DNA from: an uncultured Rivularia sp.
GTDB taxonomy: Bacteria > Cyanobacteriota > Cyanobacteriia > Cyanobacteriales > Nostocaceae
DNA length: 64,000 nucleotides
Assembly: GCA_963665115.1 (NCBI GenBank)
Contig: OY762007.1
Location: 2,976,001-3,040,000 of the forward strand
Reading direction: 5' to 3'
In this document: positions 9,872 through 57,478 of the stretch, in pieces
How the letters are laid out: every line of letters starts with the position of its first letter
How positions within the stretch are numbered: position 1 is the stretch's first letter
The notes under the pieces: generated by a model
Told to the model about the DNA's origin: nothing
Seen by the model: the letters and a program-made list of their open reading frames with translations, nothing else
Database searches by the model: none
Program-made: the position numbers and the translations under genes

Positions 9872-9880
9872 GGGAATAAT
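9872..9880 (+). promoter_or_regulatory. J-box-like motif GGGAATAAT
   Basis: One mismatch to GGGAATACT; 48 nt upstream of the kinase ATG. Confidence 0.55.
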
Positions 9881-9928
9881 AGAAGATAAGACTAGAGAAG
9901 CAGCAAGTATCAAGCTGATTCGGAATAG

Positions 9929-12900
9929 ATGACTTCACCAATGAATCCCTATCTACTAGCAGACAATTCCAGGAATTTTCTTTCTCAAAGTTTTCTGCTT
10001 GGCATAATTAATAATGTATCCGATCCTATTTTCGTTAAAAACCGGCAACATCAATGGATATTTCTCAATAATGCTTTCTGCGAGTTAACGGGTTATGACT
10101 CAGAAGAATTAATTGGAAAATCGGACTACGATTTTTTTCCTAGCAAAGAAGTCGATCTTTTTCGCGAAAAAGATGAATTAATATTCACTTCGGGTGTCAG
10201 TAGTGACTCGGAAGAATATTTTAGCGACGCTGAAGGTAAAATTTATATTGTTTCAATAACAAAATCTTTATTTAATGATGAGTCTGGGAATCAATTTCTG
10301 ATTGGTACGATTAAAAAAATTAAAGCTTCAGAGAATAAGCAACCACCAGAAGAAAAATTAAGTAATCTTACTTTATATCTAGTCAAAGCAATAAGTAATC
10401 TTTTAAATATTAGCAATTTTGATGAATCATATAATGCTGCTTTGGCGGCTTTAGGAAGAGCTACGGATGTAGATCAAGTATCTATAATAGCGTTCAAGAG
10501 TAAAAGTAATACTGAGAAAAAACGAGTTAATCAGCGTTGGAAATGGTCAAAGAATGATGTTGAAAAACAATCCGATATTTTTACGCGATGGGATATAATT
10601 CTTTCTCAAGGTGAGATTATTGCGGGTTCGGTAAATGATTTTCCCGATTCGGAACGAGAAACTTTAGAAGCTGCAAATATTCTTTCTACTTTGGTAATAC
10701 CAATTCAGGTAGCAGAAGATTTCTGGGGATATATCCGCTTTGATAGTTGTGAAAAACGTAAATGGTTAGATAGCGAAAAGTCTGTTTTACAAGCTGCTGC
10801 GGAATGTTTGGCAGCAGCTTTTTATCGTCATCAATTGCAAGAAAAGCTGAGAGAATCAAAGCAGTTTTTACAGTTAGTAGTCGATAATATACCGCAAAGT
10901 ATTTTTTGGAAAGATTGCAATAGTGCTTTTCTTGGTTGCAACCAAAAGCTTGCGAATGTATGGGGTTTGAGTTCTACTGAAGAAATAATGGGAAAAACTG
11001 ACGATGATTTTTCTAGAACAAAAGAACAATCTGAATGGTATCGGGAATGGGACAAGCGAGTAATAGAGTCTGGAGTTGCAGAATTACATATCGTCGAGAA
11101 GAAACAGCAAGCGGGTGGTAAACACTTTTGGTTAGATACTAATAAAATTCCGTTGCGAGATCGAGAAGATAATATAGTAGGAGTGCTTGCGACTGTTGAG
11201 GATATTACAGAACGCAAGCAGGTAGAAGAATCTTTAAAAGAAAGCGAAGAGAAATTTCATCAGTTATCAACGAATGTTCCGGGAATGCTTTACAAATTTA
11301 AAATGCATCCCGACGGTTCGATGTCTTTTCCTTATGTGAGTCATGGTAGTTATGAACTATTAGGAATAGAAGCAGAAACAATTCAAACAGAATCAAACTT
11401 GTTGATTTCGATGATTCATCCGGAAGACTATAAAACTTTTGAGAAGTCGCTTAATAATTCAGTCGAAACTTTTGAACCATTTTATTGGGAAGGACGTTTA
11501 ATTAAATCATCTGAAAAGATTCAATGGGTGAAAACTGAATCTCGTCCTCAGAAACAACTTGATGGTTCAATTATTTGGGATGGTTTTCTTTCCGATATTA
11601 CTCACCTCAAGCAAACAAAAAAAGCCTTGCAAGCAGCTTATGGAGAAATGGAATCGCTAGTTTTAGAGCGAACTAAAGAATTAAGCCGGACAAATAAAGT
11701 ATTAAAAGCTGAAATTGAAGAACGTAAAAATACGGAAGCTGCACTGCGCGAAACCGAAGCTAAAGTCCAGAAACTAGCAGCAAATGTACCGGGAATGCTT
11801 TACCAATTTGAACTGAATCCCGATGATTCGATGTCTTTTCCTTATGTTAGTCCTGGTTGCTATGAAATTTATAGTTTACAACCAGAACAAATTCAAGCAG
11901 ATCCCGATTCCATTTTTTCAATGGCTCATCCAGATGATTTGAAAAGTTTTAAAACTTCTTGGACTATTTCTGCGAAGAATCTCAAACCTTGGGAACATGA
12001 AGGACGAATAGTTATCCCTTCTGGAGAAATTAAATGGATAAAAAGTCATTCTCGCCCCGAGAAATTGGAAAATGGCACTATTGTTTGGTATGGCTTTATC
12101 TTAAATGTAACGGAACGCAAGCAAGCAGAAAAAGCTCTATTGCGTAGTAACGCCATGTTACAAGCTCAACAAGAAGCTGCAATTGACGGTATTTTAGTGG
12201 TTGATGAAAATCAAAATATATTATCGTGCAATCAGCGTTTTGTTGAGCTATGGCAGATTCCTCAGTCGGTTATTGAAACTGGAGATGAAAAGCATTTATT
12301 AGCATCTATGGTAGATAAATTTACAAATTTAGGAGAATTTATTAATGAAGTAGAAAATTTATCTAATGATCCAGAAAAATCGATTCGCGATGAGATTGAT
12401 TTAGGAGATGGACGAACTTTTGAACGTTACTGTGCCCCTGTAAGTTCGTCTAAGGGGGAATATTTCGGTAGAGTTTGGTATTTTCGAGATATTACCGAAC
12501 GCAAACAAGCAGAACAATCTTTAAAGAGGACTAATTCAGTTTTACAAGCGCAACAAGAAGCTTCTATTGACGGTATTTTAGTTGTTGATGAATATCGCGG
12601 ATCGATATCATATAATCAGCGTTTTATCGATTTATGGCAAATTCCGCAGTCTGCCATCGAAACGGGTAAGCACGAAGCAATTTTTGCCTCGATGCTAGAA
12701 AAACAAGAAAATCCCGAAGAATTTGTATCTACTTTAGAATATCTTTTCGATCATCCAGATAAAAGTTGCCGTAATGAGATTTATTTCAAAGATGGAAAAA
12801 CTTTAGAGCGCTATATTGCTTCAGTACTTTCTTTAACTGGAGATAATTATGGTAAGATATTCTACTTTCGAGATATTACCGAACGCAAGCAAGCCGAAGC

Positions 12901-13789
12901 AAAATTGCGTCAGCAAACACAAGAATTAGAAAAGGCTCTTTTAAAATTAAAACGTACTCAAGTTCAGCTAATTCAAAGCGAAAAAATGTCCAGTCTGGGA
13001 CAATTAGTAGCCGGAATTGCTCATGAAATTAATAACCCCGTTAACTTTATCGATGCTAATCTTACATACACTCAAGAATATTTTGAAGATTTGTTAGGAC
13101 TTATTAAAATTTATCAGAATAATTCTCCCGATAATTCAGAAGCAGAAGAATTTATTCAAAAGATTGAATTTGATTATCTTCAAGAAGATTTGCCGTCAAT
13201 TATTAAATCTATGAAAACAGGAGCCGAAAGAATTGGCAAAATTGTGCTTTCTTTGAGAACTTTTTCGCGCTTAGATGAAGCAGAGTTTAAAACGATTGAT
13301 ATTCATGAAAATATTGATAGCACTTTAATGATTTTGCAGAATAGTCTTGAAGCGAAACCAGACAGAGTTGCAATTGTAGTTACTAAGGAATTTGAAGTTT
13401 TGCCCTTAGTTGGATGTTATGCGGGAAAACTCAATCAAGTTTTTCTGAATATCTTGAATAATGCAATTGATGCTTTAGAAGAAGCAATCAAAAATCAACA
13501 AATATCTGAAAACGAATATCCTCAAATTCGTATTTCAACTAAATTAATACAGCAAGATATTGTGCAAATTAGCATAATTGATAATGGTTCAGGTATTCCC
13601 AAAGACAATATCAACAAGCTATTCGATCCATTTTTTACTACCAAAGCTGTAGGTAAAGGTACTGGTTTGGGATTATCTATGAGCTACCAGATTATAGTCG
13701 AGCAGCATGAGGGACAACTAAACTGTATTTCTACTTTGGGAGAAGGTACGGAATTTCAAATACAAATACCTGTTTATAAAAGGGAGTAG
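9929..13789 (+). CDS. multi-PAS/GAF sensor histidine kinase
   Basis: PAS, GAF and five further PAS domains, H-box AHEINNP, and HATPase motifs (NQVFLNIL, DPFFTTK, GTGLGL). Confidence 0.95.
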   Translation: MTSPMNPYLLADNSRNFLSQSFLLGIINNVSDPIFVKNRQHQWIFLNNAFCELTGYDSEELIGKSDYDFFPSKEVDLFREKDELIFTSGVSSDSEEYFSDAEGKIYIVSITKSLFNDESGNQFLIGTIKKIKASENKQPPEEKLSNLTLYLVKAISNLLNISNFDESYNAALAALGRATDVDQVSIIAFKSKSNTEKKRVNQRWKWSKNDVEKQSDIFTRWDIILSQGEIIAGSVNDFPDSERETLEAANILSTLVIPIQVAEDFWGYIRFDSCEKRKWLDSEKSVLQAAAECLAAAFYRHQLQEKLRESKQFLQLVVDNIPQSIFWKDCNSAFLGCNQKLANVWGLSSTEEIMGKTDDDFSRTKEQSEWYREWDKRVIESGVAELHIVEKKQQAGGKHFWLDTNKIPLRDREDNIVGVLATVEDITERKQVEESLKESEEKFHQLSTNVPGMLYKFKMHPDGSMSFPYVSHGSYELLGIEAETIQTESNLLISMIHPEDYKTFEKSLNNSVETFEPFYWEGRLIKSSEKIQWVKTESRPQKQLDGSIIWDGFLSDITHLKQTKKALQAAYGEMESLVLERTKELSRTNKVLKAEIEERKNTEAALRETEAKVQKLAANVPGMLYQFELNPDDSMSFPYVSPGCYEIYSLQPEQIQADPDSIFSMAHPDDLKSFKTSWTISAKNLKPWEHEGRIVIPSGEIKWIKSHSRPEKLENGTIVWYGFILNVTERKQAEKALLRSNAMLQAQQEAAIDGILVVDENQNILSCNQRFVELWQIPQSVIETGDEKHLLASMVDKFTNLGEFINEVENLSNDPEKSIRDEIDLGDGRTFERYCAPVSSSKGEYFGRVWYFRDITERKQAEQSLKRTNSVLQAQQEASIDGILVVDEYRGSISYNQRFIDLWQIPQSAIETGKHEAIFASMLEKQENPEEFVSTLEYLFDHPDKSCRNEIYFKDGKTLERYIASVLSLTGDNYGKIFYFRDITERKQAEAKLRQQTQELEKALLKLKRTQVQLIQSEKMSSLGQLVAGIAHEINNPVNFIDANLTYTQEYFEDLLGLIKIYQNNSPDNSEAEEFIQKIEFDYLQEDLPSIIKSMKTGAERIGKIVLSLRTFSRLDEAEFKTIDIHENIDSTLMILQNSLEAKPDRVAIVVTKEFEVLPLVGCYAGKLNQVFLNILNNAIDALEEAIKNQQISENEYPQIRISTKLIQQDIVQISIIDNGSGIPKDNINKLFDPFFTTKAVGKGTGLGLSMSYQIIVEQHEGQLNCISTLGEGTEFQIQIPVYKRE

Positions 13790-13940
13790 GGAGTAATGAG
13801 TAATGAGTAGGGAGTAGGGAGTGGGAAGTAGGCTAAAAATTCAAAATAATTTGCAATGAAAATTGATCTTTTTTCTTCCCTGTTCCCTATTCCCCGTTCC
13901 CTACTCCCTATACTAGATTGTTTATTTACAAAGCTAATGT

Positions 13941-13949
13941 GGGAACACT
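13941..13949 (+). promoter_or_regulatory. J-box-like motif GGGAACACT
   Basis: 29 nt upstream of the kinase ATG. Confidence 0.62.
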
Positions 13950-13978
13950 AAGTATAATGTGTTTCCTCAAATGAACTT

Positions 13979-16456
13979 ATGCTACCGGCAGAATTTAAGT
14001 CTTTACAACCCGTTAACGAAAATGCAGTCAATCCGCTACCCATGTGTCAAGTAATAATTGACAATTTACCTGAATTGATATACTGGAAAAATAATGATTT
14101 AGTCTTTCAAGGTTGTAATGTAGCTTTTGCTAGAGCCGTAGGGTTAACTTCCCCCCAACAGATTGTCGGTAAAACAGACTCGGAATTACCTTTAAAAAAT
14201 CAAATGCTTGGCTTCTTGCTAAATCGCCTTCAAAGTGGTAGTTTTGCGGGCGATCGCCAAGTAATCGAAGACAATACAAATTTTGATCAAATAATAATTT
14301 CTAGTTTAGCTTCAGGTGAGAAAGTCTGGTTACATATCCGTAAAAACCCTTTGATTAATAGTGATAGTGAAGTTGCTGGTATGCTTTGCCGTATTGAAGA
14401 TATTACTAAGCGTAAGTTAGAGGAACGATTACTGATAGAGTCTCAGCAGCGACGTTTAGCATTAATGGTGCAACAAAGTCCGTTAGCGGTGATTGAATGG
14501 AATTGTAATTTTGAAATCAAAGAATGGAATCAAGCCGCAGAAAGAATTTTTGGATACAGCAAAAGTGAAGTTTTAGGTCGTGATTTTAGCCTTTTAGTCA
14601 CAGATGATTTCAAAATTACTTTGTCAGAAATGCTGCACAACTTTGTTATTGATAAACAAAGGATGTTCAGCACCAATGAAAATATAACAAAAGATGGTAG
14701 AAAAATTGTTTGCGAATGGTACAACTATCCTTTGGTGGCTGCTAATGGTGAAATAGTCGGTATTGCTTCAATGGCATTTGATATTACCGAACGCAAACGT
14801 GAGTCGGAACAGCTACAAAAGCAAGAGCAATTTCTTCGCACAGTTTACGATGGTGCTGACGATTCTTTAATTGTTATCGATGTTACCGAAGATGGCAATT
14901 TTCGCTATGCAGGAGTGAACGCAGCCGCAGAAAGAAGTAGTGGTTTAACTCGAACACAAGTTATTGGTAAGACTCCAAAAGAATTATTTGGAGAGGTTGA
15001 AGGTGCTAGATTATCCCAAAGTTATCGCAAATGTTTAGAAACAGGTCAATCCTTTTCCTTTGAAGAATGTATCACTTTTAAAAATCAGCCAAGTTGGCAT
15101 TTAGTTACTATTAATCCTTTAAAAGATAATTCTGGCAAAATATACAGACTTGTAGGCACAGCATTAGATATTACTGAACGCAGACAAGCAGAAATAGCAT
15201 TACAAAACTCTTTAAAAGAATCAGCCGATATTAAGTTCGCTTTAAACCAAGCAGTTATCGTGGCAATTACTGATAATAAAGGACATATTGAATACGTTAA
15301 CGACAAATTTTGCGAAATATCCCAATATAGCCGCGAAGAATTAATCGGTAAAAACCATAGAATTATCAACTCCGGTAATCATCCTAAATCTTTCTTTACC
15401 CAAATGTGGGGAACCATTACTAAAGGTAAAGTTTGGCGAGGAGAAATACAAAATCGTGCCAAAGATAAAAGTCTTTATTGGGTAGACACAACCATTGTGC
15501 CAATGATAGACGCGCAAGGTAAACCGCAGCACTACATTGCCATTCGTAACGATATTACCGCTCGCAAACAAGCCGAAACCGAAGTACACCAAAAAGCGCA
15601 AGACTTAGAAAATACTCTCTTAGAACTGCAAAAGGCTCAAACACAATTAGTCCAAAGTGAAAAAATGTCCGGTTTAGGTCAATTAGTAGCAGGTGTAGCT
15701 CATGAAATTAATAACCCCGTAAACTTTATTTACGGAAATCTCAGCCATGCAAATAATTATGCTCAAGACTTATTAGAAGTAATCAAACTTTACCGTCAAA
15801 AATATCCTCAGCCTGCATCAGAAATAAAGGAATTAGCAGAAGAATTAGATTTAGAGTTTTTAGTAGAAGATTTACCCAAACTATTAGGTTCTATGAAAGT
15901 GGGAGCGCAAAGGATTCGAGAAATTGTTGCTTCTTTACGTACCTTCTCCCGCATGGATGAAGCACACATGAAAGAAGTTGATATCCACGAAGGAATCGAC
16001 AGCACTTTGATGATTTTAGAACATCGCATCAAAGCTAAATCCGACCGTTCCAGAATTGTAATTATCAAAGATTATAGTAAAATACCGCAAATAGAATGCT
16101 ATCCCGGTCAATTAAACCAGGTGTTTATGAACATTTTAGCTAATGCACTCGATGCATTAGAAGAAGGAATTGGAGATGATAATTCTCCTACTATTGGTAT
16201 TAAAACGGAATTAGAAGGATGCAAGCAAGTAAAAATCTCTATATCCGATAACGGAAAAGGAATTGCCGAAAAAATTAAAACAAGACTTTTCGATCCATTT
16301 TTTACAACTAAATCAGTAGGAAAAGGTACCGGAATGGGATTATCAATTAGCTATCAAATTATTGTAGAAAAACATTTTGGTTCTTTGAACTGTATTTCCG
16401 CACCCGGAGAAGGTACTGAGTTTGTAATTACTATTCCGTTGAAACAATGTAAATGA
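13979..16456 (+). CDS. four-PAS sensor histidine kinase; last PAS is NifL/Aer-like
   Basis: Repeated PAS/PAC with DITERK ends; EELIGKNHRIINSG...YWV signature; AHEINNP H-box; HATPase. Confidence 0.95.
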   Translation: MLPAEFKSLQPVNENAVNPLPMCQVIIDNLPELIYWKNNDLVFQGCNVAFARAVGLTSPQQIVGKTDSELPLKNQMLGFLLNRLQSGSFAGDRQVIEDNTNFDQIIISSLASGEKVWLHIRKNPLINSDSEVAGMLCRIEDITKRKLEERLLIESQQRRLALMVQQSPLAVIEWNCNFEIKEWNQAAERIFGYSKSEVLGRDFSLLVTDDFKITLSEMLHNFVIDKQRMFSTNENITKDGRKIVCEWYNYPLVAANGEIVGIASMAFDITERKRESEQLQKQEQFLRTVYDGADDSLIVIDVTEDGNFRYAGVNAAAERSSGLTRTQVIGKTPKELFGEVEGARLSQSYRKCLETGQSFSFEECITFKNQPSWHLVTINPLKDNSGKIYRLVGTALDITERRQAEIALQNSLKESADIKFALNQAVIVAITDNKGHIEYVNDKFCEISQYSREELIGKNHRIINSGNHPKSFFTQMWGTITKGKVWRGEIQNRAKDKSLYWVDTTIVPMIDAQGKPQHYIAIRNDITARKQAETEVHQKAQDLENTLLELQKAQTQLVQSEKMSGLGQLVAGVAHEINNPVNFIYGNLSHANNYAQDLLEVIKLYRQKYPQPASEIKELAEELDLEFLVEDLPKLLGSMKVGAQRIREIVASLRTFSRMDEAHMKEVDIHEGIDSTLMILEHRIKAKSDRSRIVIIKDYSKIPQIECYPGQLNQVFMNILANALDALEEGIGDDNSPTIGIKTELEGCKQVKISISDNGKGIAEKIKTRLFDPFFTTKSVGKGTGMGLSISYQIIVEKHFGSLNCISAPGEGTEFVITIPLKQCK

Positions 16457-16629: not shown

Positions 16630-18057
16630 CTAAATACTATAGCCATCCGAAAAACTCAGATTTGGTTGCTTGTTAGCACATGATAAAGGATTTTCATTCC
16701 ACGAGACTTGCGGTTTTTCGCAAACAATGACTGTTTTATCGAAAGGGACAACGCACCAAATTTATCGGCAATACGAAATGTATAAGTTAAGCTTTTGTTC
16801 GTTGAATTTAACTCCTATAAAACGAGCAAATTCAAACAGTGCTGCTGAAGCGACAAATTCATTGTTGCTCAAAATATGTTCGTAGTTGAAATATAGTAAA
16901 ATTAAATCTTTATCTAAAGCATCTCTTAAATCGTACTTTAGCGCAGAAGATAGAATCTTCGTTATGCTCTCTAAACTTGAATTAATATCATCTTTCAATA
17001 TTTTCTCTATGCTATTCTTTAAATCATATTCTATAAAATCATCTAAAACATCACTTAGCTCAGATTGCAATGATTTCAGAGCAGATGTAATTACAGGTTT
17101 TGTTAGAGCATAATCAAAAGGAAGTAATAGAAAATCCCAATACAGCGAGTTTAATTTTTCTGCCAGATATTGATTTTCAGTTTGTTTCAAAAAATCTGAT
17201 TGTCCAAAAAAACCTAGATGTGCGGTATAGAAACTAGGTACAAAAATAATTTCCGGTACTTGTTCTTCTGCGTATCGATATAATTCTTGAATAACTTTAG
17301 TTGCTTGTTCTTTCTTTATGGGTGTATTAATTAAATTTAACCAGCTTTGTTTAGTTTTAAAAAGTTCTGCTTCTTGTTCTAACGTTACACAATATATATT
17401 TTTATTTTCATCTGCGAATCTATATCTATAATGAATAAATTCAAACTTTTGTCGATCTAAATTAATAGAAACAAAATCTCGATCGCGTTCCAAACTAACA
17501 AATGCTTGTTCGGCACAGTCTGCAATTTCTGCAATCAAATCTCCTAAGCTCTTATATATTTTACGCTTATCAAAAAGCCAGTTTTTATTTTTTATTATTT
17601 TTAAATTGTCTCGATCGTGTTTAAATTCTTTATTAAAATAAAAATCTTCATAAAAGCCGTCATCATCGTATAGCATGATTACAGAAGATTCATTTATTCC
17701 AAGAGGAACTGCAAAAAAATTTCCTCCAAATTCCCCTGAAAAATATAAAACTATCAGAAAATAGAAAATCTCGCCATCATCGTTTACTTTTTTTATATGA
17801 CGAATAGTCTCTTCAAGTGGGGTAAAATGACCTGTGATACTACCATAATCAGAAAATTCAAAATAAGTATTATCTACTAAACCATTTCGCCATTGATAAA
17901 GCTCGTAAACTTCTTTAGGTAATTTAAAGGGTAAATCTTTGGTTATTTCATCAATCTCTTCAGATTTTAATCCCGGTTGAAACAAGTCTTTAACTTCTGG
18001 TGCTTTTTCTTCTATACAATCCCAGATTCGCTTTAAATTATTTTTGATTGCCGTCAT
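16630..18057 (-). CDS. SMI1/KNR4-family protein with C-terminal DUF6745-like domain; in-frame TAA at 16762-16764
   Basis: N-terminal LPFKLPKEVYELYQWRNG SMI1-type motif. The frame continues past the stop as IWCVVPFDKTVIVCEKP...FSDGYSI to TAG at 16630. Confidence 0.7.
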
Positions 18058-18268: not shown

Positions 18269-19177
18269 CTAAGGAATCGCTACCACTCTTAACAAACGTT
18301 CCATTACACTTTGCGCTCTCCTTCCTCCCACGGCTATCAAACGATGACTCAAAACATGGGGAGCAATAAATTTTACATCATCGGGTATTGCATAATCGCG
18401 TCCGGAAAGATACGCAAAGGCTTGTGTAGCGCGGTGTAATGCTACAGTTCCCCTCGGACTGACACCGAGAGTAATTTCTTCGTCACATCTTGTCGCTCTT
18501 ACCAAATCGAGCATATATTGCTGTAATGAAGCTTCTACTTTGATACCAGCACAAATTCGCTGTAATTCTTCAACTTCAGCTAAGGTTATACAGGGTTTTA
18601 AGTCAGTAAATTTGCTGCCATCCTGGAGTCGAGATAGCATTTGTAACTCTTCTTGCTCCGTAGGATAACCCAAGCTCAAGGACAGCATAAATCTATCCAT
18701 TTGCGCCTCGGGTAGGGGAAAAGTACCTTGATATTCAACTGGGTTTTGAGTGGCGATGACGAAAAACGGTTGGGGAACTGCACGAGAGACACCATCAACT
18801 GTTACCTGCCCTTCTTCCATAACTTCTAGCAAGGCAGATTGAGTACGGGGTGTAGCGCGGTTGATTTCGTCTGCTAGCATTACGTTCGCAAAAATTGGTC
18901 CTTCTAAAAAAGTGAATTCACCAGTTTTAGGACTCCAAATATTTGTACCCGTAATATCAGTAGGTAGTAAATCCGGCGTGCATTGTAAACGTTGAAATTT
19001 TCCATCAACGGAACGAGCCAAAGATTTAGCAAGCAGAGTTTTGCCGACTCCGGGAACGTCTTCAAGCAAAGCGTGTCCCCCACCTAATAAGGCGACTAAT
19101 ACCAAGCGGATAGCTTCAGATTTACCAACAATGGTACGAGCTAGATTTTGTGTCAGAGCGTCAATTTTATCTCTCAT
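18269..19177 (-). CDS. MoxR-family AAA+ ATPase
   Basis: LLEDVPGVGKT Walker A, LADEINRA Walker B, ATQNP, and LPEAQMDRF. Confidence 0.95.
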   Translation of the reverse strand: MRDKIDALTQNLARTIVGKSEAIRLVLVALLGGGHALLEDVPGVGKTLLAKSLARSVDGKFQRLQCTPDLLPTDITGTNIWSPKTGEFTFLEGPIFANVMLADEINRATPRTQSALLEVMEEGQVTVDGVSRAVPQPFFVIATQNPVEYQGTFPLPEAQMDRFMLSLSLGYPTEQEELQMLSRLQDGSKFTDLKPCITLAEVEELQRICAGIKVEASLQQYMLDLVRATRCDEEITLGVSPRGTVALHRATQAFAYLSGRDYAIPDDVKFIAPHVLSHRLIAVGGRRAQSVMERLLRVVAIP

Positions 19178-19310
19178 GCAACGAATAAGGTTAAAGGTTA
19201 AAGGTCAAAGGTCAAAGGTTAGGAGTTAGGAGTTAGTGTCTACTTTAATGCTCCATGCCCAATGCCCAATGCCCAATTCCCTTTTTTATTGTTCCCAGAG
19301 TTGGCATAAA

Positions 19311-20304
19311 CTAACACGCTTGTCGGAAAAATTTTCTGGCGGTAGTGCAGTCGAGTTGAATTTGAGCTTTGAGGGCTTCTAATGATGAAAATTTCTGTTG
19401 GGGCCTGAGAAATTTTTCTAATTGGATTTGCAGCTTTTTATCGTATAAATCTCCAGTGAAATCTAAAAGATGTACTTCTACTGTGAGATTAGTGCCGTTT
19501 ACGGTGGGGCGATCGCCAATGTTCATCACTCCCCAGCGGTTGTTTATAATATCAGGGCCGTTCGATATCGCTAACTCTAACGGCATAAACTCCTTGTCGG
19601 GGCAAAAATTTATCTTCTGGTAATTCTAAGTTGGCAGTGGGGAAACCAATCGTTCTACCGAGTTGCTGTCCTTTGACTACTTTACCCATAAGAGTATAAG
19701 GTCTTCCCAATAGTCGGTTGGCTTTTTCAAGCTGACCAGTTTCGAGCGTTTGGCGAATTCTTGAAGTGCTGATACGAGTTTCCTCTTCAATTAGCGGTAA
19801 ATCGTCTTCATGCATTTCCAAGGGAACGATAGTAACGGGAATACCATACTTAGCAACAAGTACCTGTAAATCCATTGCAGTACCGCTGCGCTGGGAACCA
19901 AAACAAAAATCTTGTCCAACGCTGATTCTTGCAGCTTGTAATTTCTCTACGATAATTTGTTCTACGAACTGTTCGGGAGTCAAAGCGGCTAATTCTTTGT
20001 TGAAGGGGATTAGTACAAGTTGTTCTACCCCAAGCAGTTCTAGCTGTCGGACTTTTTCATCCACAGGAGTCAACAAACTTCTAGGTTTCCCCGTAAAAAA
20101 CTCTTGGGGATGCGGTTCAAATGTAATAACTGTTGGGTGAATGCGTTCTGCGCCTGCTGATTTATGCAAAATTGGTTGGATTACCCTTTGATGACCGCGA
20201 TGAACGCCATCAAACTTACCAAGGGCAACAGCAGTAGGAGTTTGAATCAATTCGGTTGAAGATGTTACCCACACAGAACACCCATTTTGAGACAGATTTG
20301 GCAC
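19311..20304 (-). CDS. ribF: bifunctional riboflavin kinase / FAD synthetase, frameshifted at about 19556
   Basis: GKFDGVHRGH, GRTIGFPTAN, NIGDRPT and EVHLLDF. The frames join by removing one base of the GGG at 19555-19557. Confidence 0.93.
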
Positions 20305-45507: not shown

Positions 45508-45637
45508 CAGGACTTACGCAAAAATAACGTAACTGCGTCATTACTCATGAGAGGCGACGTAATCTCCCCAGGCGCTGGGAAAGATCCCCTACATTCCGTT
45601 CCGGTCGCAATGACAAATCTTCGTTGCGTAAGTCCTG
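45508..45637. mobile_element. 130-bp MITE with 14-bp terminal inverted repeats and 5-bp TSD
   Basis: CAGGACTTACGCAA...TTGCGTAAGTCCTG, flanked by ACAAT at 45503-45507 and 45638-45642. Confidence 0.85.
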
Positions 45638-45683
45638 ACAATATAAAGATTTTGACCTCGAACGCGATTTTTTTTAATGATTT

Positions 45684-45692
45684 GGGAACACT
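45684..45692 (+). promoter_or_regulatory. J-box-like motif GGGAACACT
   Basis: Lies within a decayed copy of the kinase promoter/leader cassette. Confidence 0.62.
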
Positions 45693-45935
45693 AAATGCAG
45701 AATTATTGAGGATATAAAGCATCGTTAGTATCACCAGATACCACATCCACAAAAAATCTGCAAGGGTTCAAGAATATAGCTATTTTTTGCTTTGGGAAAA
45801 AGCAACTAATTTTAATTTAATTTTCATATTTAGTACTTATTTTTGTTTATCGCCAAGACATAAAATTAATTTCGCAAATCAACAAAATTCAGACTATTTT
45901 TATTACCTAATAAGATTAAGGAGATATTTAAAACC

Positions 45936-46452
45936 ATGCAGAGCCAGCCACAAGGGCAATCGCCTCCACTGATATCTTCATCTTCAAAGCTCCCTCTACA
46001 AGATGATATGTTGCAACGGCAATTATTGCAGCTAGTAATGGATAACCTGCCAGAATGCATCTTTTGGAAAGATATAAATGGAGTTTACTTGGGCTGCAAC
46101 AGCAAATTTGCTGAAATTGCAGGGGTTGGCAGCCCTGAAAATATCGTTGGCAAAAATGATTACGAGCTACCCTGGAAAAAAAAAGAAACTGATTTTTTTC
46201 GTTCAAGACAATGGTTTAGAACTTGTTATACCTCCATCTGAGGATTTACAAATGTTATTCGATCTAGCCCAAGATGGCTGATTAATCAAGTTAGCAAAAA
46301 CAGCGGAAAAAATTGCACAAAACAATAACCTTTATCTACCCTTTGCCCAGAAAATTTTACAGATGACAAGGAAATTTGATACAGAAAAAATAGAGGAATT
46401 ACTTAATAAATATCTTCACTCCGAGCAATCTTTCCAATCTCGAAATCCATGA
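45936..46452 (+). pseudogene. internally deleted hybrid kinase remnant (partial PAS fused to C-terminal helical domain)
   Basis: PAS start (DNLPECIFWKD) joined out of frame at about 46200 to ELVIPPSEDL...YLPFAQKI, with in-frame TGA at 46279. The final stop overlaps the ATG at 46449. Confidence 0.8.
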
Positions 46453-48122
46453 CTAAGGAATTAATAGAATCAACAGGGCTGATCTTAATTGTGGACGATA
46501 TTACGGTTAATCTAGATGTACTATCTGAAACACTTAGTACAGCAGGTTATGACGTGGCGATCGCCACCAATGGAAAACGAGCTTTGAAACAGCTAGAGCG
46601 GAAATTGCCGGATCTAATTTTGCTGGACATAAAAATGTCTGAAATGAATGGTTTTGAAGTCTGCCAAAAAATCAAAGCTAATCCTACAACTTGCAATATT
46701 CCGATCATTTTTATCACGGCTTTAGCCGATCTAGATAGTAAGATTAAAGGCTTTGAACTAGGAGCATTAGACTATATTACTAAGCCATTCCAAGAGCAGG
46801 AAGTCCTCGCTAGGATCAAAACACATTTACAGTTGAGAAAGCTGACTCAAAACTTAGAGGAGCAAGTAGCTCTTAAAGTATTTTCATTGGAACAAGCCAA
46901 GCAAGCTGCCGAACAAGCAAATATCGCCAAAAGCCAATTCCTTGCTAACATGAGTCACGAGCTTCGCACTCCCCTCAACGCCATTTTAGGCATGACTGAG
47001 GGTCTACAAGAGCAGGTTTTTGGCAGCACCAACGACCAACAATTTAAAGCATTGCAAACTATTGAACGCAGTGCTTCCCATTTACTTGAACTGATTAACG
47101 ACATTCTGGATCTCTCAAAAATAGAATTGGCTCACATAGAGCTAAATCCTAGCTGTACTGACATAGCAGAACTTTGTCAAACGAGTTTAGCCTTCATTAA
47201 ACAACAAGCCCGCTCGAAAGACATCGAGCTAAAAACAAAGCTACAACCCAATTTGGCCAACTTACTTGTGGATGAAAGACGCATCCGCCAAGTTTTAATT
47301 AATCTGCTTACCAATGCTATTAAGTTCACCCCGGATCGAGGATGCATTACCTTAGAAGTAAACCTTCTTCCCCGTGGTACCTTTTCAGATGCTGTTTCCT
47401 CATCCCAAAATTACTTACGAATTGCTGTTAGAGATACTGGCATTGGTATTAATACCGAACATCTCGAAAAATTGTTTAAGCCCTTCGTGCAAATTGATAG
47501 CGCTCTGAATCGGAAATATGAAGGGACGGGTTTGGGACTTTCCTTGGTAAAACGCATCGTCGAACTTCATGGGGGACGGGTAGGAGTTATGAGTGAGGTC
47601 GGAGTAGGAAGCTGCTTCACAGTCGATCTACTCTATAGTGCTGCGACATCATCAGAGTGTGAATTAAAAATTCACTCAGAAATTAGCATCGAACCCAGCG
47701 AGCAAAAGCAAACAGCATCTCCTTTAATTTTGCTAGCTGAAGACAACGAGGCCAATATCGCAACAATTTCGGGCTACCTTAAAGCCAAAGGCTACCAAAT
47801 AGTTTTGGCGAAAAACGGGCAGGAGGCTATTGATTTGACCTACTCCAGAACGCCCGATTTGATTGTAATGGATATTCAAATGCCAGGAATAGATGGCATA
47901 GAAGCAATGCAGCAAATCCGTCAAAATCGAAATTTAGCGAATTTGCCTATCATAGCTCTTACAGCTTTAGCAATGAAAAGCGATGGGCAAAATCCCGGCG
48001 TAGCCGATTGCGAACGTTGTCTTACAGTCGGAGCCAATGAATACCTTAATAAACCCGTCAAGCTCAAGCAATTGACATTCATAATCCAAAAATTGTTAGA
48101 CGCTCAGGAGTATACCCTATGA
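46449..48122 (+). CDS. hybrid kinase REC-HisKA-HATPase-REC
   Basis: Two receiver domains flanking the [11 protein letters not shown]-box and HATPase; core paralogous to 42048. Confidence 0.94.
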
Positions 48123-49225
48123 AAAAAGCATCCGTTTTAATCATTGATGACGAACCCGATAATTTTGATGTAATCGAAACTCTACTAAGCGTTGAGGTTA
48201 GTAGAAATTATTCAGGGGAAAATTATGATTATCAACTGCACTATGCTGCCGACGGGAGCAACGCGATCGCATCTCTCGACACCTTTAAACCCGATATTAT
48301 TTTGCTTGATGTGATGATGCCAGGAATAGATGGTATCGAAGTCTGCGGGCGTATTAAAGCAATGCCCCAGTGGCGATCGGTGCCAATCATTACGGTCACG
48401 GCTCTTAACAGTAAAGAAGACCTAGCTAACTGTCTAAGATCGGGTGCCGATGACTTTATCAGTAAGCCTATTAATGGTGCTGAACTGCGTGCAAGAGTAA
48501 ACTCCATGCTGCGAATCAAGCATCAGTATGACGACCTGCAAGCCCTGCTCAAGCTACGGGAAGACATGGTTAACATGGTAGTTCACGACCTACGAAATCC
48601 TCTTACTGATATATTGCTGGGTGTGGAGATTCTCCAAAGTGGGAAGTATCCTGCAAACAAGCACCAGCACAAATTAACTCGAATCTATTCCTCAGCACAA
48701 GCACTACAGGTATTGATTGATGATTTGCTGACTATGGCACTGCTCAAATCTGGTAAAGTTTCTCCCAATTGCATGGAAGTTTGCATATGTGAACTTATAC
48801 AGTCTGCCATCTCAAACTTTGAAACAATCGCAGCTAAAAAAAATCAAGTACTGGTGAGTCAATTACCAAAAGAATCTAGTCAGAAAGTCTTTGTTGATGC
48901 AACGATGATGCACCGAACCTTGGATAACCTCTTATCGAATGCAATTAAGTTTTCCCCAGACAGCAGCCAAATTATAGTTAAGGTTGAATTTACCACATCT
49001 GGTCATTATAAAATCCAAGTTATTGATTCCGGGCCGGGTGTTGCCGATGCATTCCAACAAAAGATTTTTGATCAATACGAAGTTGGAAATTCAATGTCCA
49101 ATGTCTCTCAAATAGGGTTGGGTTTAGCATTTTGCAAAATGGTAGTTGAAGCACATGGAGGAGAAATTTGTGTTAAAAAAAATCAACCCCAAGGAGCCAT
49201 TTTTGAGATTGTTTTGGCTGCATAG
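48119..49225 (+). CDS. hybrid response regulator / histidine kinase (REC-HisKA-HATPase)
   Basis: LLDVMMP receiver, VHDLRNPL H-box and [12 protein letters not shown] overlap with the upstream gene. Confidence 0.94.
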
Positions 49226-49281
49226 TAGTATTGACTGTTTCATAAATCTAGAAACTGACAAATTTTTGAGGGGTTGCAACA

Positions 49282-49585
49282 ATGTCTGACTTTTCTATCT
49301 TGGTTATTGATGATAGACAAACCAATAATTACAATTAGTACTTCACTCCAAGATAACTAAAATATATTAATTAGTATCAAAGATAATGGCGTTGGAATTA
49401 GTAAATCCATTTTAAATAAGATATTTGAACCATTTTTTACTACAAAACCTGTCGGCGGCGGTACGGGTTTAGGATTATCAACTAGTTATTCAATTGTCCT
49501 AAAAAAAGATCGGGGTAATTAGAGTTGCATCTCTGCTCCGAGAGAGGGGACAGAATTTTTAATTGAACTGCCTATTCAACCATAA
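49282..49585 (+). pseudogene. chimeric remnant: REC start fused to decayed HATPase 3' end
   Basis: ATG MSDFSILVIDD followed from 49315 by a close copy of 54932-55199 containing stops. Confidence 0.8.
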
Positions 49586-49688
49586 TAAGAATTACAACAA
49601 GTTCAAACTCTCTTATCAGTTCAGAACCTGATGGAATAATCAGCAAAGTAATACTTCCAACTTAAAATACAATTTTAAGGTCAGATTT

Positions 49689-49697
49689 GGGAATACT
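49689..49697 (+). promoter_or_regulatory. J-box GGGAATACT
   Basis: Exact match, 35 nt upstream of ATG. Confidence 0.72.
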
Positions 49698-49732
49698 AAA
49701 TTCGGAAGTATTTAGACTGGAATCAACGCAGC

Positions 49733-52700
49733 ATGGTTAGCATCTCTGGATATCACATATTAGAACAACTTTACAATGGTTCGAGAACCCTGATATATCG
49801 TGCTATTCGTGAAAATGACCGAAAACCTGTAGTTATCAAATTGCTCAAAAATTCATTAGCGGATTTCAGCGAGTTGGTACAGTTTCGCAACCAATACACC
49901 ATCACTAAAAATATACATTCACCTTACATTATTCAATCCTACAGCTTGGAAGATTATCGCAATACTTGTGCATTGGTAATGGAAGACATGGGGGGAATTT
50001 CTCTTAAAGAATATTTCAATAATGTAGAGACGTTATATATAACGTCTCAAAATACAACGTCTCAATACATAACGTCTCAAAATAATCTCCTTGAGACACC
50101 CTCCGCTAAATCGTTTCTACAAGAATTTCTTCAAATAGCCATTTTCCTGTGCGATGCCTTAGATACTTTATATCACTATAGAATAATTCATAAAGATATT
50201 AAACCCGCCAACATTTTAATTAATCCAAATACCAAACAAGTTAAATTAAGTGACTTTAGTATTGCTTCTTTACTTCCAAAAGAAACTCAAATTTTCATCG
50301 CTCCTTCGGTGTTGGAAGGAACTTTAAGCTATATATCTCCAGAGCAAACTGGAAGAATGAATCGCGGAATTGATTATCGTACTGATTTATATTCATTGGG
50401 TGTTACTTTTTACGAATTACTAACGGGAGAATTACCATTTAAATCGAAAGATGCGATGGAGTTGGTGCATTGTCATATTGCGAAAGCTCCTCCAAGTATG
50501 AAAAAACTTCACTCTAACTCTCTGCTTATTAAGGAAAGGGAAAAAGAAATCCCTCAAGTTTTATCAGATATCGTCATCAAGTTGATGGCGAAAAATGCGG
50601 AAGATAGATATCAAAGTGCTTTGGGATTAAAGTATGATTTAGAACTTTGTTTAAAGCAAATAAAAGAAGTTGAAAAGATAGAAAGTTTTGAAATTGCTCA
50701 AAGAGATATTTGTAATAGATTTATTATCTCTGAAAAACTCTACGGTAGAGAAACTGAAGTTCACAAATTATTAGCTGCATTTGATAGAGTATCAAATGGC
50801 AATAGTGAATTAATACTTGTTGCAGGTTTTTCTGGTATTGGCAAAACGGCCTTAGTTAATGAGGTTCATAAACCAATAGTTAAGCAACGCGGTTATTTTA
50901 TTAAAGGTAAATTTGACCAGTATAATCGTAATATTCCTCTTTCTGCTTTTGTGCAAGCGTTTAAAGATTTAATTGGACAATTATTGACTGAAAGCGACAG
51001 TCAACTGTCAATCTGGAAAAATCTCATTTTACAGGCTTTAGGAGATAACGGACAAGTAATTATTGATGTGATTCCCGAATTGGAAAATATTATTGGTAAA
51101 CAACCATACGCACCGGAATTATCGGGAGATGCGGCACAAAATAGATTTAATTTATTATTTCAAAAGTTTATTCAAGTTTTTACTACCAAAGAACATCCTT
51201 TAGTTATTTTTTTAGATGATTTGCAGTGGGCTGATTCGGCATCTTTGAAATTGATGCAGTTGCTTTTATCTGAATCAAAAACTGGTTATTTATTAATGAT
51301 TGGTGCTTACCGAGATAATGAAGTGTTTCCCGCTCATCCTTTGATGTTGACGCTAAATGAAGCATCTAAAATCGGTACAACAATTAATACAATTATTCTG
51401 AAACCTTTAAATAAAGCAAGTTTAACTGAATTAGTAGCAGATACTCTTTCATGTTCTAAGCATTTAGCAAAACCTTTGACTAATATCATCTATCAAAAAA
51501 CTAAAGGAAGTCCGTTTTTTGCAACTCAGTTTTTGAAAGCTTTACATCATGATGGATTAATTAACTTTGATAATCAAGCTGGATATTGGCAATGCAATAT
51601 TAATAAAGTCCGCTCGGCAGCGCTAACAGATGATGTAGTTGAATTCACAAGCATTCAATTACGCAAGCTACCAGAATCAACTCAAGATGTTTTGAAATTA
51701 GCTGCTTGTATTGGCAATCAATTTGATTTAGAAACATTAGCAATTCTTTCCGAAAAATCAAAAGAAGAAACAGCAGCTTGTTTATGGAAAGCTTTGCAAA
51801 AAGGTTTGATTTTACCGCAAAGTGATGTTTATAAGTTTTTTATTCAGGCTGAAAATCAAGAAATTAATTCGCAGACTGCTAAAGTTGCAAAATATAAGTT
51901 TTTGCATGACAGAATTCAGCAAGCTGCTTATTCTTTGATTCCAGAAGAAAAAAAACAAAAGACTCATTGGCAAATTGGACAAGCGCTATTAAGAATAATT
52001 TCAGAAGAACAGCTTGAAGAAATTATTTTTGAAGTAGTTAATCAACTTAACAATGGTTTGAAATTTTGCGAGCAAGATGCAACAAATAAAGAGAAAATCG
52101 CTCGACTAAACTTACAAGCAGGACTAAAAGCTAAGGAATCAACTGCATATGCTGCTGCTGTTAGCTATTTCAGTCAAGGAATTAGTTTGCTGGCTTGCGA
52201 CTTCTGGGAACATCAATACAAATTGAGCTTTGAACTGTATCGACAATTAGCAGAAGCAGAATATCTCAATGGTAACTTTGAACGAGCATAAATTTTAGTT
52301 GATGACATTCTTAAAAAAGCAAAGTCAGATATAGAAAAAGCCGACCTCTATAATCTTTTAGTTGTACAATTTACATTAGAAGCAAAATACGATCGAGCAA
52401 CTACAGTTGGCAAACAAGGACTTAGTTTATTAGGTATCAACATACCTATAGATAACTTGCAATCTTCTATCGATGAACAATTGCAAAAAATTATAGACGG
52501 ATTTAAACAGCAAGAAATTGTCTCTATTTTGCACAAACCAGTAATGAGTCAAGAAGACAAAAAAATTGCAATTAAACTTTTAATAAACCTCGATCCACCA
52601 ACATATATTACTGGGAATTTGAATCTGTATATATTCATTTCTTTAAAAGCAGTTTTACTTTCCTTAGAATATGGTAATGCTGCGGAATCTGCGAAAGCCT

Positions 52701-55199
52701 ATGCAAACTATGGATTAATTTTGGGTACAGTTTTAGGAGATTATCAAACTGGCTATGAATTTGGCAAACTTGCTTATAACCTGAGTGAAATCTTCCAAAA
52801 CCAGGGGCAACTCTGTAAAGCAAGTTTGCTATTGAGTGGTTGGTTAACAAGCTGGAGTCAACCCATCGATGATGCCGAAAAAGTTGCTCTTAGTGGGTAT
52901 CAAGCAGGTTTAGAATCTGGAGAAATTCAATTTGCAGGTTACAATCTGTTTGCTTTGGGCTGCATTCTGCATTTTAAAGGTACTAAACTACAGCAAATTC
53001 AAGAAGGAATCAGTAATTGGTTGCCTTTTGTAGAGAAAACCAAAAATCAGCTCGCACTTGAAATATTATCGGCGCTTCAGTTTCAATGTCTCTAAATTGT
53101 TAGGGGAAAATAGCCCTAACATTAAATTGACTCACTACCAAAGCCCAATAGCAGTTGCAATCGATTGTATCTACCAGTGTCAAAAATATTACTTACTAAA
53201 CCAGTCCGAAGCATCTTTAAATCATGCCTTAGAAGCAGAAAAATTGACATTAGCGATCGCCGGTTTTGTGACTTCTGGAGAATATCATTTTTATGTTCCT
53301 TTAGTGTTTCTCAATCGCTTACCTTTAATGCAGAAAGAGCAACAACAATCATACTGGGAGAAAGTAAAGACACATCAACAAAAACTGAAAATTTGGACTG
53401 AACAATGCCCGCAAAACTTCCAACATAAATACTTTCTATTACAAGCAGAAATCAACCGAGTTAATGGCAATTTTGCAAATGCTATTGAATATTATGACAA
53501 AGCTATCTCTGAGGCTTCGGCTAACAAATACATTCATGAACTTGCCCTTTCTAACGAATTAGCAGCTAAATTCTACCTGGATTGGGACAAAGAAAAATTA
53601 GCCCAAATATATATGCAAGAAGCTTACTATTGCTACACAGAATGGGGAAGTAAAGCAAAAACTGACGATTTAGAAAAACGCTATTTTCAACTGCTTGCAC
53701 CCATATTTAAAAACTTTGATAAATCGGAATTGATCGATCAAACTATTCAAATAACTAGTTCGAGTAGCAGCAGTATTTCCGAAAATCTCGATTTCGCTAG
53801 CATTCTTAAAGCAACACAAGCTCTATCAAGTGAAATTAAATTAGAGCAGTTAATTTCCAAGTTAATGCAAGTGGTGATGGAAAATGCTGGAGCCAAAAAA
53901 GCCGCTTTGATTTTGCTCGACGATGATAATCTGATGCTCAAAGCAGTAGCTGCTACCTCCTCTAGTATAAAGCTGCTCAATTTACGGTACCAAGACAGCG
54001 AAGATATCCCTGCTACATTAATTAACTATGTCAAAAGAAGTTTAAAAACAATCGTATTAGATAATGCAACACAAAACCCGGATTTTATCGCCGATTCATA
54101 TTTAATGGAGCAACAACCGAAAAGTTTACTTTGTATGCCGATTTTGAATCAAGGTAAATTAATCGGATTATTATATTTAGAAAATAACTTGACGATTGGT
54201 GCATTTACCCAAAATCGTGTAGACACTCTTAATTTGCTCTGCACCCAAACAGCTATTTCTTTGGAAAACGCTCAACTTTACAGCAAATTAGCAAACTATT
54301 CTCATACTTTAGAACAAAAAGTAGAACAGCGAACTCAAGAAGTAACCCAAAAAGCAACTCAATTAGAATCAACTTTAAAAGAATTACAACGCACTCAAGC
54401 CCAATTAATTCAAACTGAAAAAATGTCCGGTTTGGGACAACTTGTGGCTGGAATTGCTCACGAAATCAATAATCCCATCGGCTTTATTTACGGTAATCTC
54501 ACCCCAGCTTCTGAATATACTTTAGATTTAATTGAACTAATTAATTTATATCAAAAGCTTTATCCTCAATCTCTACCTGAAATTGCAGACAAAGTTGACG
54601 ATATAGACTTAGATTATTTAATTGAGGATTTACCAAAACTACTTGATTCAATGAAAATAGGTGCAAAGCGGATTCGTGAAATTGTTGTGTCATTACGAAA
54701 CTTTTCTCGCTTAGATGAAGCCGAACTAAAACCAGTAGATATTTACTCTGGGATTGATAGCACTCTGTTAATTTTGCAGCATCAACTCAACTCAAGTAGT
54801 AAATATCCAGAAATTGAAGTAATTAAAAACTATAGTCAACTTCCAGAAACTAATTGCTATGCTTCTCAATTAAATCAAGTGTTTATAAATATTATCGGTA
54901 ACGCAATTCATGCTTTGCGAGAAAAGCAGGAAGACAAACCAATAATTACAATTAGCACTTCGCTTAAAGATGAGCAAAATATATTAATTAGTATCAGAGA
55001 TAATGGTGTTGGAATTAGTCAATCCATTTTAAATAAGATATTCGACCCATTTTTTACTACAAAACCAGTCGGTAGCGGTACGGGTTTGGGATTATCAACA
55101 AGCTATTCAATTGTCGTAAAAAAACATCGGGGTAATTTGAGTTGCATTTCTGCTCCGGGAGAGGGAACAGAATTTTTGATTGAATTACCTATCAAATAA
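49733..55199 (+). pseudogene. second trifunctional Ser/Thr kinase-AAA-GAF-histidine kinase, disrupted in this sequence
   Basis: Colinear with 33833; in-frame TAA at 52289-52291 and a +1 frameshift near TTT at 53081-53083. Confidence 0.85.
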
Positions 55200-55286
55200 T
55201 TAGATAAAATCTAATGTTTCCGATCATTTTTGGTTCTAAGAACGATAAAACTATTTTTATATATGTCTATTTTTTTGGTCATTTGT

Positions 55287-55295
55287 GGGAATACT
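55287..55295 (+). promoter_or_regulatory. J-box GGGAATACT
   Basis: Exact match within a decayed kinase leader cassette, 157 nt upstream of ATG 55453. Confidence 0.68.
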
Positions 55296-55452
55296 AAATC
55301 CAGAAGCATTAGGAATTTAGCAGTATGGTTTTCTTTATATATCGCATTTTAGAAAAAAGTATCAAGCTTCTAGAAACATTATCTATCGTCCCCGATAAGC
55401 GGACATTTGCATTGCTTACAACTTTCAATAAATGCAAAGCCGGTAACTGGGT

Positions 55453-57372
55453 ATGAAAATTAAAAATAAAATTATTTACGGTTACGTAGTTGCATTGGGA
55501 ATTGCATTAGTAGGAACGGGAATAGGACTATTTGTAGGGAACCATCATCAACAACAAGCACTACAAGCTCGACAAAGAGCTTCTACTGAAAGAAAATTTA
55601 TCAGCAAATTGCAAGTTGATATTTTGTACAATCGTCTTACTAAGCAACTAACGCCCCATTTGCAAAATCGGCAAGCTTTTCGTAACGAAGGTATGAAGTT
55701 AATTGAGCGCATCGACAAAATTCAAGCATTGTTGACTACCCATAATCAATCGGGTAGAGCTACTACTTTAAAAGGGTTACAGCCTCTACTTGAAGACTAC
55801 AAGATCGCCGTTGCTGAGTTTGCCGAGATGTCGCGAAATACTATCGCCGAGATAGATGCATTATTAATCGCATCACCCGACAACAGAGAAAAAGCCGAAA
55901 AGCTGGTGGTTAATTTAGCAAAAAGCCCGGAGTTTGCTAAATTTGTTGATTTTTCCGACCGATTGACAAAGTTTTATCAAATTGCAGAAAAACAAGAAAA
56001 TCATCATGAAAATTACTTATTTCAGGCAGAAAAAAACCGTACTCAAATTATCATTATAAGTTTGGGAACATCTATCGCCATCGGGATTATTCTAGCTGTG
56101 TATATTAGTAGAACGATTGCCCATCCCATTCAAAATTTAAATCAAATAGCCTTACAGGTTACTAAAGAAGATAACTTTACTCTACAAGCTCACCTTGAAA
56201 GCAAAGACGAAGTAGGATTGCTATCTTCTTCTTTTAATCAACTTATTTATCGTGTTAACCAACTTTTACTCGAACAGCAAATCTACACAGAAAAACTCGA
56301 ATATACCAAAGAAGTTGCTGATGCAGCCAATCAAGCTAAAAGTGAATTTCTGGCGAACATGAGCCACGAACTTCGTACCCCCCTTAACGGTATTTTGGGC
56401 TATGCTCAGGTTCTCCAACAGTCAAAAGAATTAAAAGAAAAAGAACATCATGGACTGCAAATTATTTACGAATGCGGTTCTCATCTACTCACCGTTATTA
56501 ATGACATCCTAGATATTTCTAAGATAGAAGCTGGCAAATTTGAATTGGAATTGAAGGAGATTCACTTTCCTTCTTTTTTGCAAGGAGCGATAGAAATCTG
56601 TCGCTTGCAGGCAGATCAAAAAGCAATTAACTTTGTTTATGAACCCGATCTGAATCTCCCCACGGTTATCTTAGCTGATGAAAAACGACTCCGCCAAGTG
56701 CTACTAAACCTCCTCAATAATGCCATCAAATTTACCGAGCAAGGCAGTGTCACCTTCAGAGTTAAATACATCAACTCCGAGAAATTAGCAAAACAACCTA
56801 TTGCCTCTATCTGCTTCCAAGTCGAAGATACAGGTATTGGCATTTCTGATAGCGAGCAGGCAAAAATCTTTCGTTCCTTTGAACAATCAAGTAACAAAAA
56901 ATACCACATGGAAGGAACGGGGTTAGGTTTAGCAATTAGTCAAAAAATTGTTGAACTCATGGGGAGCAAAATTCAAGTTGAGAGCCAACTGGGGTTAGGT
57001 AGTACTTTCAGCTTTGAAGTCAACTTAGATATTTCTGAAAACTTGGCACAACAGGAGTCTGTGAATAACGAAGGGCAATTTATCGGTTATGAAGGTGTTC
57101 CTCAGCTAACTTGGAAATATGACAAAGTTGATTCTACCTTAGCTTTTAACATTAGTGAAGATAATGAGGCAGAACTAGTTTTACCAACCACTGAAGATTT
57201 ACATATTCTGTTGAAATTAACGCAGGATGGTTCATTGAGCAAACTAATGAAAGCCGCTGAAGAAATTGGTCTGCATCCCAATTACCTGCCTTTTGCTGAG
57301 AAAATTATACATTTAGCTAAGCAATGCGAACTAGAAAAAATAGAGGAACTGCTGCAAGCAAGCCTTACTTAA
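55453..57372 (+). CDS. membrane HAMP histidine kinase lacking the receiver domain
   Basis: Two TM helices, helical extracytoplasmic domain, [14 protein letters not shown], HATPase and C-terminal helical tail. Confidence 0.93.
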
Positions 57373-57469
57373 GCTAATTATCAAACTGCTCTATATTTGG
57401 AGAAATTGTTAAATTAGCTGAATAAATTAAAAATTAATAACTAAATTTTGCTTGTTTTTTCAACGATTT

Positions 57470-57478
57470 GGGAATACT
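57470..57478 (+). promoter_or_regulatory. J-box GGGAATACT
   Basis: Exact match upstream of the Cache-domain kinase. Confidence 0.68.

Follow-up and report, generated by a model that had tools for sequence, protein, structure and literature searches.

The J-box, GGGaAtacT, has been described as the extended -10 element of SigJ-dependent hormogonium genes in Nostoc punctiforme (Gonzalez et al. 2019, PMC6495340); Data Set S2 of that paper gives the MEME consensus TGGGAATWMTA, and the element is defined as having its transcription start some 10 bp away from the hexamer centre. Published J-boxes precede pilB, sigC and ebsA (PMC6495340, PMC11407516). For the HstK or cbSTKIII dual kinases of cyanobacteria, tandem duplication and domain shuffling have been described (PMC2176072), and control by nitrogen source, iron and NtcA as well as a heterocyst glycolipid role have been reported (PMC2176072, PMC4365693). 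Here we describe a 64,000-nucleotide stretch of DNA from a filamentous cyanobacterium, an uncultured Rivularia sp. (assembly GCA_963665115.1, contig OY762007.1, positions 2,976,001 to 3,040,000; the whole of it is called the window) in which J-boxes stand before sensor kinase genes. A preliminary description of the window had read eight such boxes as separate promoters, one for every kinase transcription unit. We consider it probable that the boxes are SigJ promoters which switch kinases on in hormogonia, and that five of them are copies of one HstK cassette, spread by tandem duplication and left behind after the body of the gene was deleted.

All eight sites were confirmed on the plus strand, which is the coding strand, and they are named here by their first G, the T of the motif lying one base before it. 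The letters GGG-A-A-Y-A-M-T, including the invariant GGG, A and T of the published consensus, are present in all eight and in a ninth site, in accordance with the earlier identification of the motif as the J-box. The pattern TGGGAAYAMTA has nine matches in the window and a mean of 0.15 in 100 shuffles (largest value 1), far above chance. This pattern is post hoc, fitted to the sites, and the published 9-mer GGGAATACT was therefore counted too: five copies lie in the window and 98 in the 8.69-Mb genome, or about 0.7 per 64 kb. Each box is in forward orientation upstream of the first gene of its unit, and the antisense control found a box at none of the nine window kinases and none of 119 others. 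Five boxes had been placed 29-48 nt before an ATG; their number stands and the distance was measured as 28-47 nt, with 156-242 nt to the next open reading frame (ORF) for the remaining three. A scan of 39200-57800 for the sigma-70 consensus gave chance level (54 against 55.7). The motif matches the J-box, and judged by sequence the boxes are likely extended -10 promoters read by SigJ. The ninth match, which had been missed, lies on the minus strand (19287-19297), 119 nt upstream of a non-kinase gene for a MoxR AAA ATPase (18269-19177, minus strand). Npun_F0944 of N. punctiforme, annotated as 'ATPase', is listed as sigJ-dependent and has the same TGGGAACAATA in its promoter as the MoxR box, the likeness of the two genes being one of annotation. 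An ORF of 431 amino acids (aa) behind the MoxR gene (16762-18057, minus strand) gave a weak SMI1/KNR4 match (E 3.9e-5, below the cut-off).

Boxes 33794, 42010, 45684, 49689 and 55287 have in common the J-box, some 30 nt of leader and the initial HstK codons, and a profile of 61 intact HstK starts matches all five (E 5e-28 to 1e-7). Boxes 9872, 13941 and 57470 gave no match to this profile and have no flank in common with the other boxes, as had been noticed before. The five cassette copies are paralogous and duplication therefore explains most of the cluster; the preliminary description was right that duplication alone is insufficient as far as the three independent boxes are concerned, and its picture of one separate promoter per unit is not supported. 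Box 33794 (33793-33803) heads the cassette of an intact dual kinase gene (33833-39259, plus strand, as are all further features of the window given below unless marked otherwise). Its product of 1808 aa has the domains that define HstK/cbSTKIII proteins by Pfam (Pkinase at 7-278, AAA_16, GAF at 1366-1505, HisKA and HATPase_c) together with the catalytic motif HKDIKPAN, a Walker A motif and an H-box, and its closest titled relatives are from Rivularia sp. and an uncultured cyanobacterium (82-85%). In this genome the core GGGNANNNT precedes all nine HstK starts at a distance of 34-67 nt, and the nine include paralogues with 49% identity.

The second cassette copy, at box 42010 (42009-42019, E 4.7e-10), precedes a chimeric hybrid kinase gene (42048-45482) in which about 11 HstK start codons and an HstK-type GAF domain (residues 12-190, 43-59% to HstK paralogues) are joined to a part of a CBS-domain kinase family (residues 199-1140, with PAS, DXCF cyanobacteriochrome GAF, GAF, histidine kinase and receiver domains). 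The N-terminal Ser/Thr kinase domain is absent, which places the product outside HstK/cbSTKIII as defined. Orthologues of this fusion are present in genomes G017 and G181 (79% and 84%). We examined five long relatives of the CBS-domain kinase family out of 20 matches in 200 other genomes. All five (59-68% identity) have a different N-terminus and no Ser/Thr kinase, with CBS domains found by Pfam in the one that was scanned, and three of the five have an orthologue of the window gene 48119 behind them. Since the five examined start in the CBS manner and have no Ser/Thr kinase, an origin of 42048 from a long HstK hybrid by internal deletion was rejected. A core box within 130 nt is absent in four of the five; within 600 nt some core match is present in three of the five, one of them J-like at 391 nt, and the passenger part may for this reason have been under SigJ control before the fusion. 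The second GAF domain of 42048 has DYCF at 422 and CH at 452 and is predicted to be a cyanobacteriochrome of the DXCF type, the marks of which are a DXCF motif and the chromophore cysteine in CH. Of the light, redox and ligand sensors proposed earlier to be switched on together, light sensing has support in this domain and ligand sensing in the dCache domain of 57641; a search for a LOV motif found none.

The remaining cassette copies are in various states of decay. Box 45684 begins a stub (45683-45774, E 1.8e-9) whose start codon is lost at 45721 and whose frame is broken. It is followed by a small PAS gene (45936-46452), itself broken by a frameshift near 46180-46200 and a TGA at 46279, and by a receiver-kinase-receiver gene (46449-48122) and a receiver-kinase gene (48119-49225), two passengers with no box of their own. 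Their coupling by ATGA overlaps, pointed out in the preliminary description, is real, but the frame that 46449 overlaps is the broken one. A leftover 3' end of an HstK-like kinase gene (49328-49576; tblastn to HstK residues 1724-1807, 49%) sits just before box 49689 (49688-49698) and is one more trace of a deleted copy. Behind that box lies a second HstK gene (49733-55199), which is broken by a TAA at 52289 and a frameshift near 53081. Box 55287 begins a second stub (55286-55388, E 1.1e-7) with its ATG at 55325, and behind it stands a gene for a HAMP histidine kinase (55453-57372) as passenger. Assembly errors as the source of the stubs and breaks were rejected for 41700-57700, since short-read contigs have the same letters in three of four runs (X1-X3, from one study and possibly the source data); the TAA at 52289 is present in X1-X3, and the exception is the frameshift near 53081, which is without support in three of the four runs. 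One-base differences among runs X1-X4 occur at 53081-53084 and 55389-55390. Short multi-copy repeats are found at 45509-45638, before box 45684, and at 57498-57618, between box 57470 and its gene.

We compared the locus in 12 genomes of the genus. In nine of them it can be recognised by its MOSC or gntR flanks or by having the same kinases; the loci of G004, G008 and G012 are other HstK sites. HstK copies have been gained, broken and deleted among these genomes. In 31 cassette copies the core GGGNANNNT was kept in 20/20 intact copies and in 10/11 stubs or fusions. The stubs and fusions match the consensus in 97/99 letters of the box and in 392/660 letters of the first 60 coding positions, and the intact copies in 165/180 and 970/1200, respectively. 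In G011 the orthologue of 55453 lies 3 bp behind an intact HstK gene, an arrangement that is likely the earlier state of the 55453 locus. A rule by which the box is lost whenever no passenger follows was considered and rejected, as it is true for G001 and fails for G009. A perfect J-box in G014 (L238:558-3426), part of a weak match to the cassette (E 0.0012), precedes an ORF of 929 aa or more that is not a kinase, and in a Nostoc genome (G191:C51:95000-148000) ten tandem HstK cassette hits occur in about 53 kb.

The three independent boxes have a history of their own. Box 9872 (9871-9881), whose GGG is 57 nt from the ATG of a multi-PAS/GAF histidine kinase gene (9929-13789, 1286 aa), is conserved at 56-57 nt in 7/7 orthologous loci. 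Box 13941 (13940-13950) precedes a multi-PAS histidine kinase gene (13979-16456, 825 aa) and has its core at 38-48 nt in all 15 orthologous loci with enough upstream DNA; at both boxes the DNA further upstream diverges. Box 57470 (57469-57479), separated by short repeated DNA from a dCache-HAMP hybrid histidine kinase gene (57641-60466), is kept in G007, and a J-like box lies 93-94 nt upstream in 3/3 distant homologues. To judge from this conservation, the three are older, family-specific J-boxes. They also speak in favour of eight separate recruitments under a rule by which hormogonia switch on every sensor kinase. We counted kinases in a crude ORF set with a strict box, GGGAAYAMT in -300..+60, which was found at 6/9 window kinases and, outside the window, at 8/119 kinases and 91/6815 other ORFs (p 2.8e-4); this enrichment would fit such a rule. 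However, five of the boxes come with the HstK leader and start codons, a paralogy that largely refutes it, only 14/128 kinase-domain ORFs (108/6981 ORFs overall) have the strict box, and in N. punctiforme the sigJ label is borne by about 38 of 146 histidine kinase rows, so that separate recruitment of all eight is scarcely credible. Boxes were also found before the pilB-like, sigC, ebsA, dprA and ftsE genes of this genome. In a family of ORFs that begin MSDNQ...YDxVLGG (G000:C1:262413-263579, 1179791-1185119 and 7391272-7392468), several paralogues are preceded by J-like boxes at 35-43 nt, so that HstK is not the only gene family accompanied by its box.

The association of the box with HstK extends beyond the genus. 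Among the 80 best of 606 titled loci, most of them from Nostoc, the core lies within 110 nt of 64/80 HstK starts (controls 3/79, 6/80 and 9/79), and in a sample across the class, made up of the best 29 of the 85 genomes that gave a match, within 110 nt of 17/29 (controls 2, 3 and 4 of 29); overall, 4-14% of control stretches contain it. The 20 nt after the box are conserved as well. Two group-3 sigma factors of the Rivularia genome are over the PRK07408 cut-off. One gene, G000:780841-781689, is monocistronic and patchy in its distribution, being absent from 7 of the 29 sampled genomes, and is called SigJ-type here; the other, SigF-type, has two genes behind it and is present in 28/29. The domain library does not separate SigJ from SigF, therefore the SigJ name rests on gene context and distribution, which are as described for sigJ in PMC6495340. 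In the class sample the box is present in 16/22 genomes with the SigJ-type gene and in 1/7 without it (Fisher p 0.011). Thirteen of the 16 box-less titled loci are from Microcoleus (10), Tychonema, Aerosakkonema and Capilliphycus; all five genomes tested from these genera are without the SigJ-type gene, with no box at four of those five loci, and the gene is present in 5/5 Nostocales genomes tested. A tree of 57 HstK kinase domains, which does not date the origin of the box, has boxes in all its parts without clustering (15 changes against a mean of about 17 after shuffling). An HrmK orthologue in this genome exceeds its cut-off; some 4 kb away from it, encoded on the other strand, is an HstK gene with a J-box (G000:C1:3226961-3238570). 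G177, G167 and G124 have two SigF-like genes each, one of them in a 432-aa frame, and no SigJ-type gene.

A number of points weigh against the explanation preferred here, some concerning the stubs and some the protein that reads the box. The profile used to search for stubs included the box and so favours stubs that kept it, the 11 stubs and fusions represent only about five events, and in the two fusions among them coding identity falls for another reason. The stub of G016 has no box, and a deletion in G009 has kept a perfect box with no kinase behind it, only the radical-SAM gene downstream. Stubs are rare beyond the genus: the 57 hits fetched, of 75, were all intact, in ten genomes of which one duplicates a genus member, and four further hits gave one stub case, G192 (Nostoc), where a solute-binding protein and a kinase follow the box and its leader. 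In the class sample kin are not independent, with the seven SigJ-less genomes coming from three families, 6/22 SigJ genomes are without a box at the one HstK examined, and one SigJ-less genome, G124, has a box; in addition, the titled loci are mostly Nostoc, and SigF and SigJ promoters overlap (PMC11407516).

A second reading takes the HstK-linked boxes as real SigJ promoters and stubs 45684 and 55287 as neutral relics of recent deletions, the genes behind them using other promoters. Retention of the box would then be owed to the short time since deletion and to the bias of the profile. The case of G009 agrees with this, the first gene behind 45684 is itself broken, and leader identity in stubs (217/363) is about that of intact copies (429/660). 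We regard this as unlikely, because the coding parts of the stubs have diverged widely among G000, G007 and G017 with the box unchanged, the same stub-passenger pairs recur in several species, and the sole stub that has lost the invariant last T, that of G001, has no same-strand gene behind it. The overlap of SigF and SigJ promoters and the box of G124 would fit a motif read by SigF, a site bound by some different regulator or an RNA element of the HstK leader, with no tie to SigJ or hormogonia; the conserved 20 nt after the box and the occurrence of J-boxes before pilB in strains without sigJ (PMC6495340, PMC11407516) agree with this as well. Against it stand the multi-kinases of N. punctiforme, whose listed induction is kept in the sigF mutant and lost in the sigJ mutant, the mostly box-less HstK genes of genomes with SigF only, and G041, where the box is present with the SigJ-type gene only, so that a reader other than SigJ appears very improbable.

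According to the explanation by SigJ promoters, induction of hormogonia would activate the SigJ holoenzyme, which would bind each box and start transcription a few bases downstream, as expected from where the J-box is placed in the published promoters. The HstK proteins and the PAS, GAF, cyanobacteriochrome, Cache and HAMP kinases would then rise together in the motile filament. The HstK array was probably duplicated first and decayed by deletion afterwards, which would have left promoters to downstream or fused passengers and would be the reason for the density of boxes in the window; the stubs may still drive their passengers (46449-48119 and 55453). We also lean, if only slightly, towards a wider view in which HstK is an old SigJ-dependent family of the motile stage in cyanobacteria at large and its cassette a portable SigJ switch, handed repeatedly to unrelated kinases through tandem duplication and loss of the HstK body, in this window also to a cyanobacteriochrome kinase operon, by which lineages rewire the senses of their hormogonia. 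Growth of a regulon would here be visible in the act, with donor cassette, stubs, fusion and ancestral operon state within one genus. HstK kinases are giant and numerous, with nine in this genome and 13 rows annotated 'multi-kinase' in N. punctiforme, and for most of them no role is known. Work on them has centred on Anabaena PCC 7120, a strain that forms no hormogonia; the conserved SigJ promoter suggests studying them in hormogonia, and N. punctiforme is a species in which these can be combined with mutants.

Elsewhere in the window pheS, ribF and the radical-SAM gene are each split into two frames, and an abhydrolase gene and dnaJ also look cut (the five stretches are 22791-23788, 19311-20304, 8897-9788, 40068-41652 and 61021-62000). 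As pheS is essential, the split frames may be assembly indels. The sigA, sigB-like and sigC ORFs elsewhere in the genome look truncated too.

We take the 'multi-kinase' annotation of N. punctiforme genes to stand for the HstK architecture. The RNA-seq rows of PMC6495340 comprise 146 histidine kinases, of which 47 rise in hormogonia and about 38 bear the sigJ label (35 seen and three inferred from row order). The sigJ list includes 9/13 'multi-kinase' genes against 38/146 other kinases (p 0.002), and those nine rise strongly in the wild type and in the sigF mutant and are flat or low in the sigJ mutant (PMC6495340). By our own reading of the published sequences the core is present in eight of the nine listed promoters, and that of Npun_R2272 ends, by eye, in a leader like the window's; PMC2176072 also lists HstK-type proteins for this species. 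The J-box and the SigJ regulon are thus known, and since these rows list kinases as SigJ-dependent, the sensory part of the regulon was already known in the data. SigJ control of many sensor kinases, as the preliminary description proposed, is likely, and the surprise is limited, as both promoter and control were in the published data set. The main text of PMC6495340 never has the words 'histidine kinase' or 'multi-kinase'. The available parts of PMC2176072, PMC4365693, PMC12267927 and PMC11119718 contain neither HstK as a J-box family nor capture by HstK stubs, and in the literature searched we found no printed account of either, though one may exist.

The locus resembles the SigJ regulon described in PMC6495340 in its motif, forward orientation and AT-rich upstream DNA, and in the boxed pilB, sigC, ebsA and ftsE genes of the same genome. 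It differs in that the HstK family was not singled out there, in that clustering here comes from duplication of a cassette, and in resting on sequence evidence. The 33833 kinase, with its N-terminal Ser/Thr kinase, GAF and C-terminal histidine kinase domains, is like the described HstK/cbSTKIII proteins (HstK Alr2258, Alr0709/0710, Pkn30, Pkn44). Unlike the control described for those proteins, the family here has a conserved J-box, tracks SigJ and has a promoter that outlives the gene. In promoter capture generally, a gene falls under a foreign promoter through local rearrangement after duplication and deletion. The present case is different: probable captures recur across a genus at a single locus, all from one donor cassette, and the genes concerned are those of sensor kinases, in one instance joined in frame.

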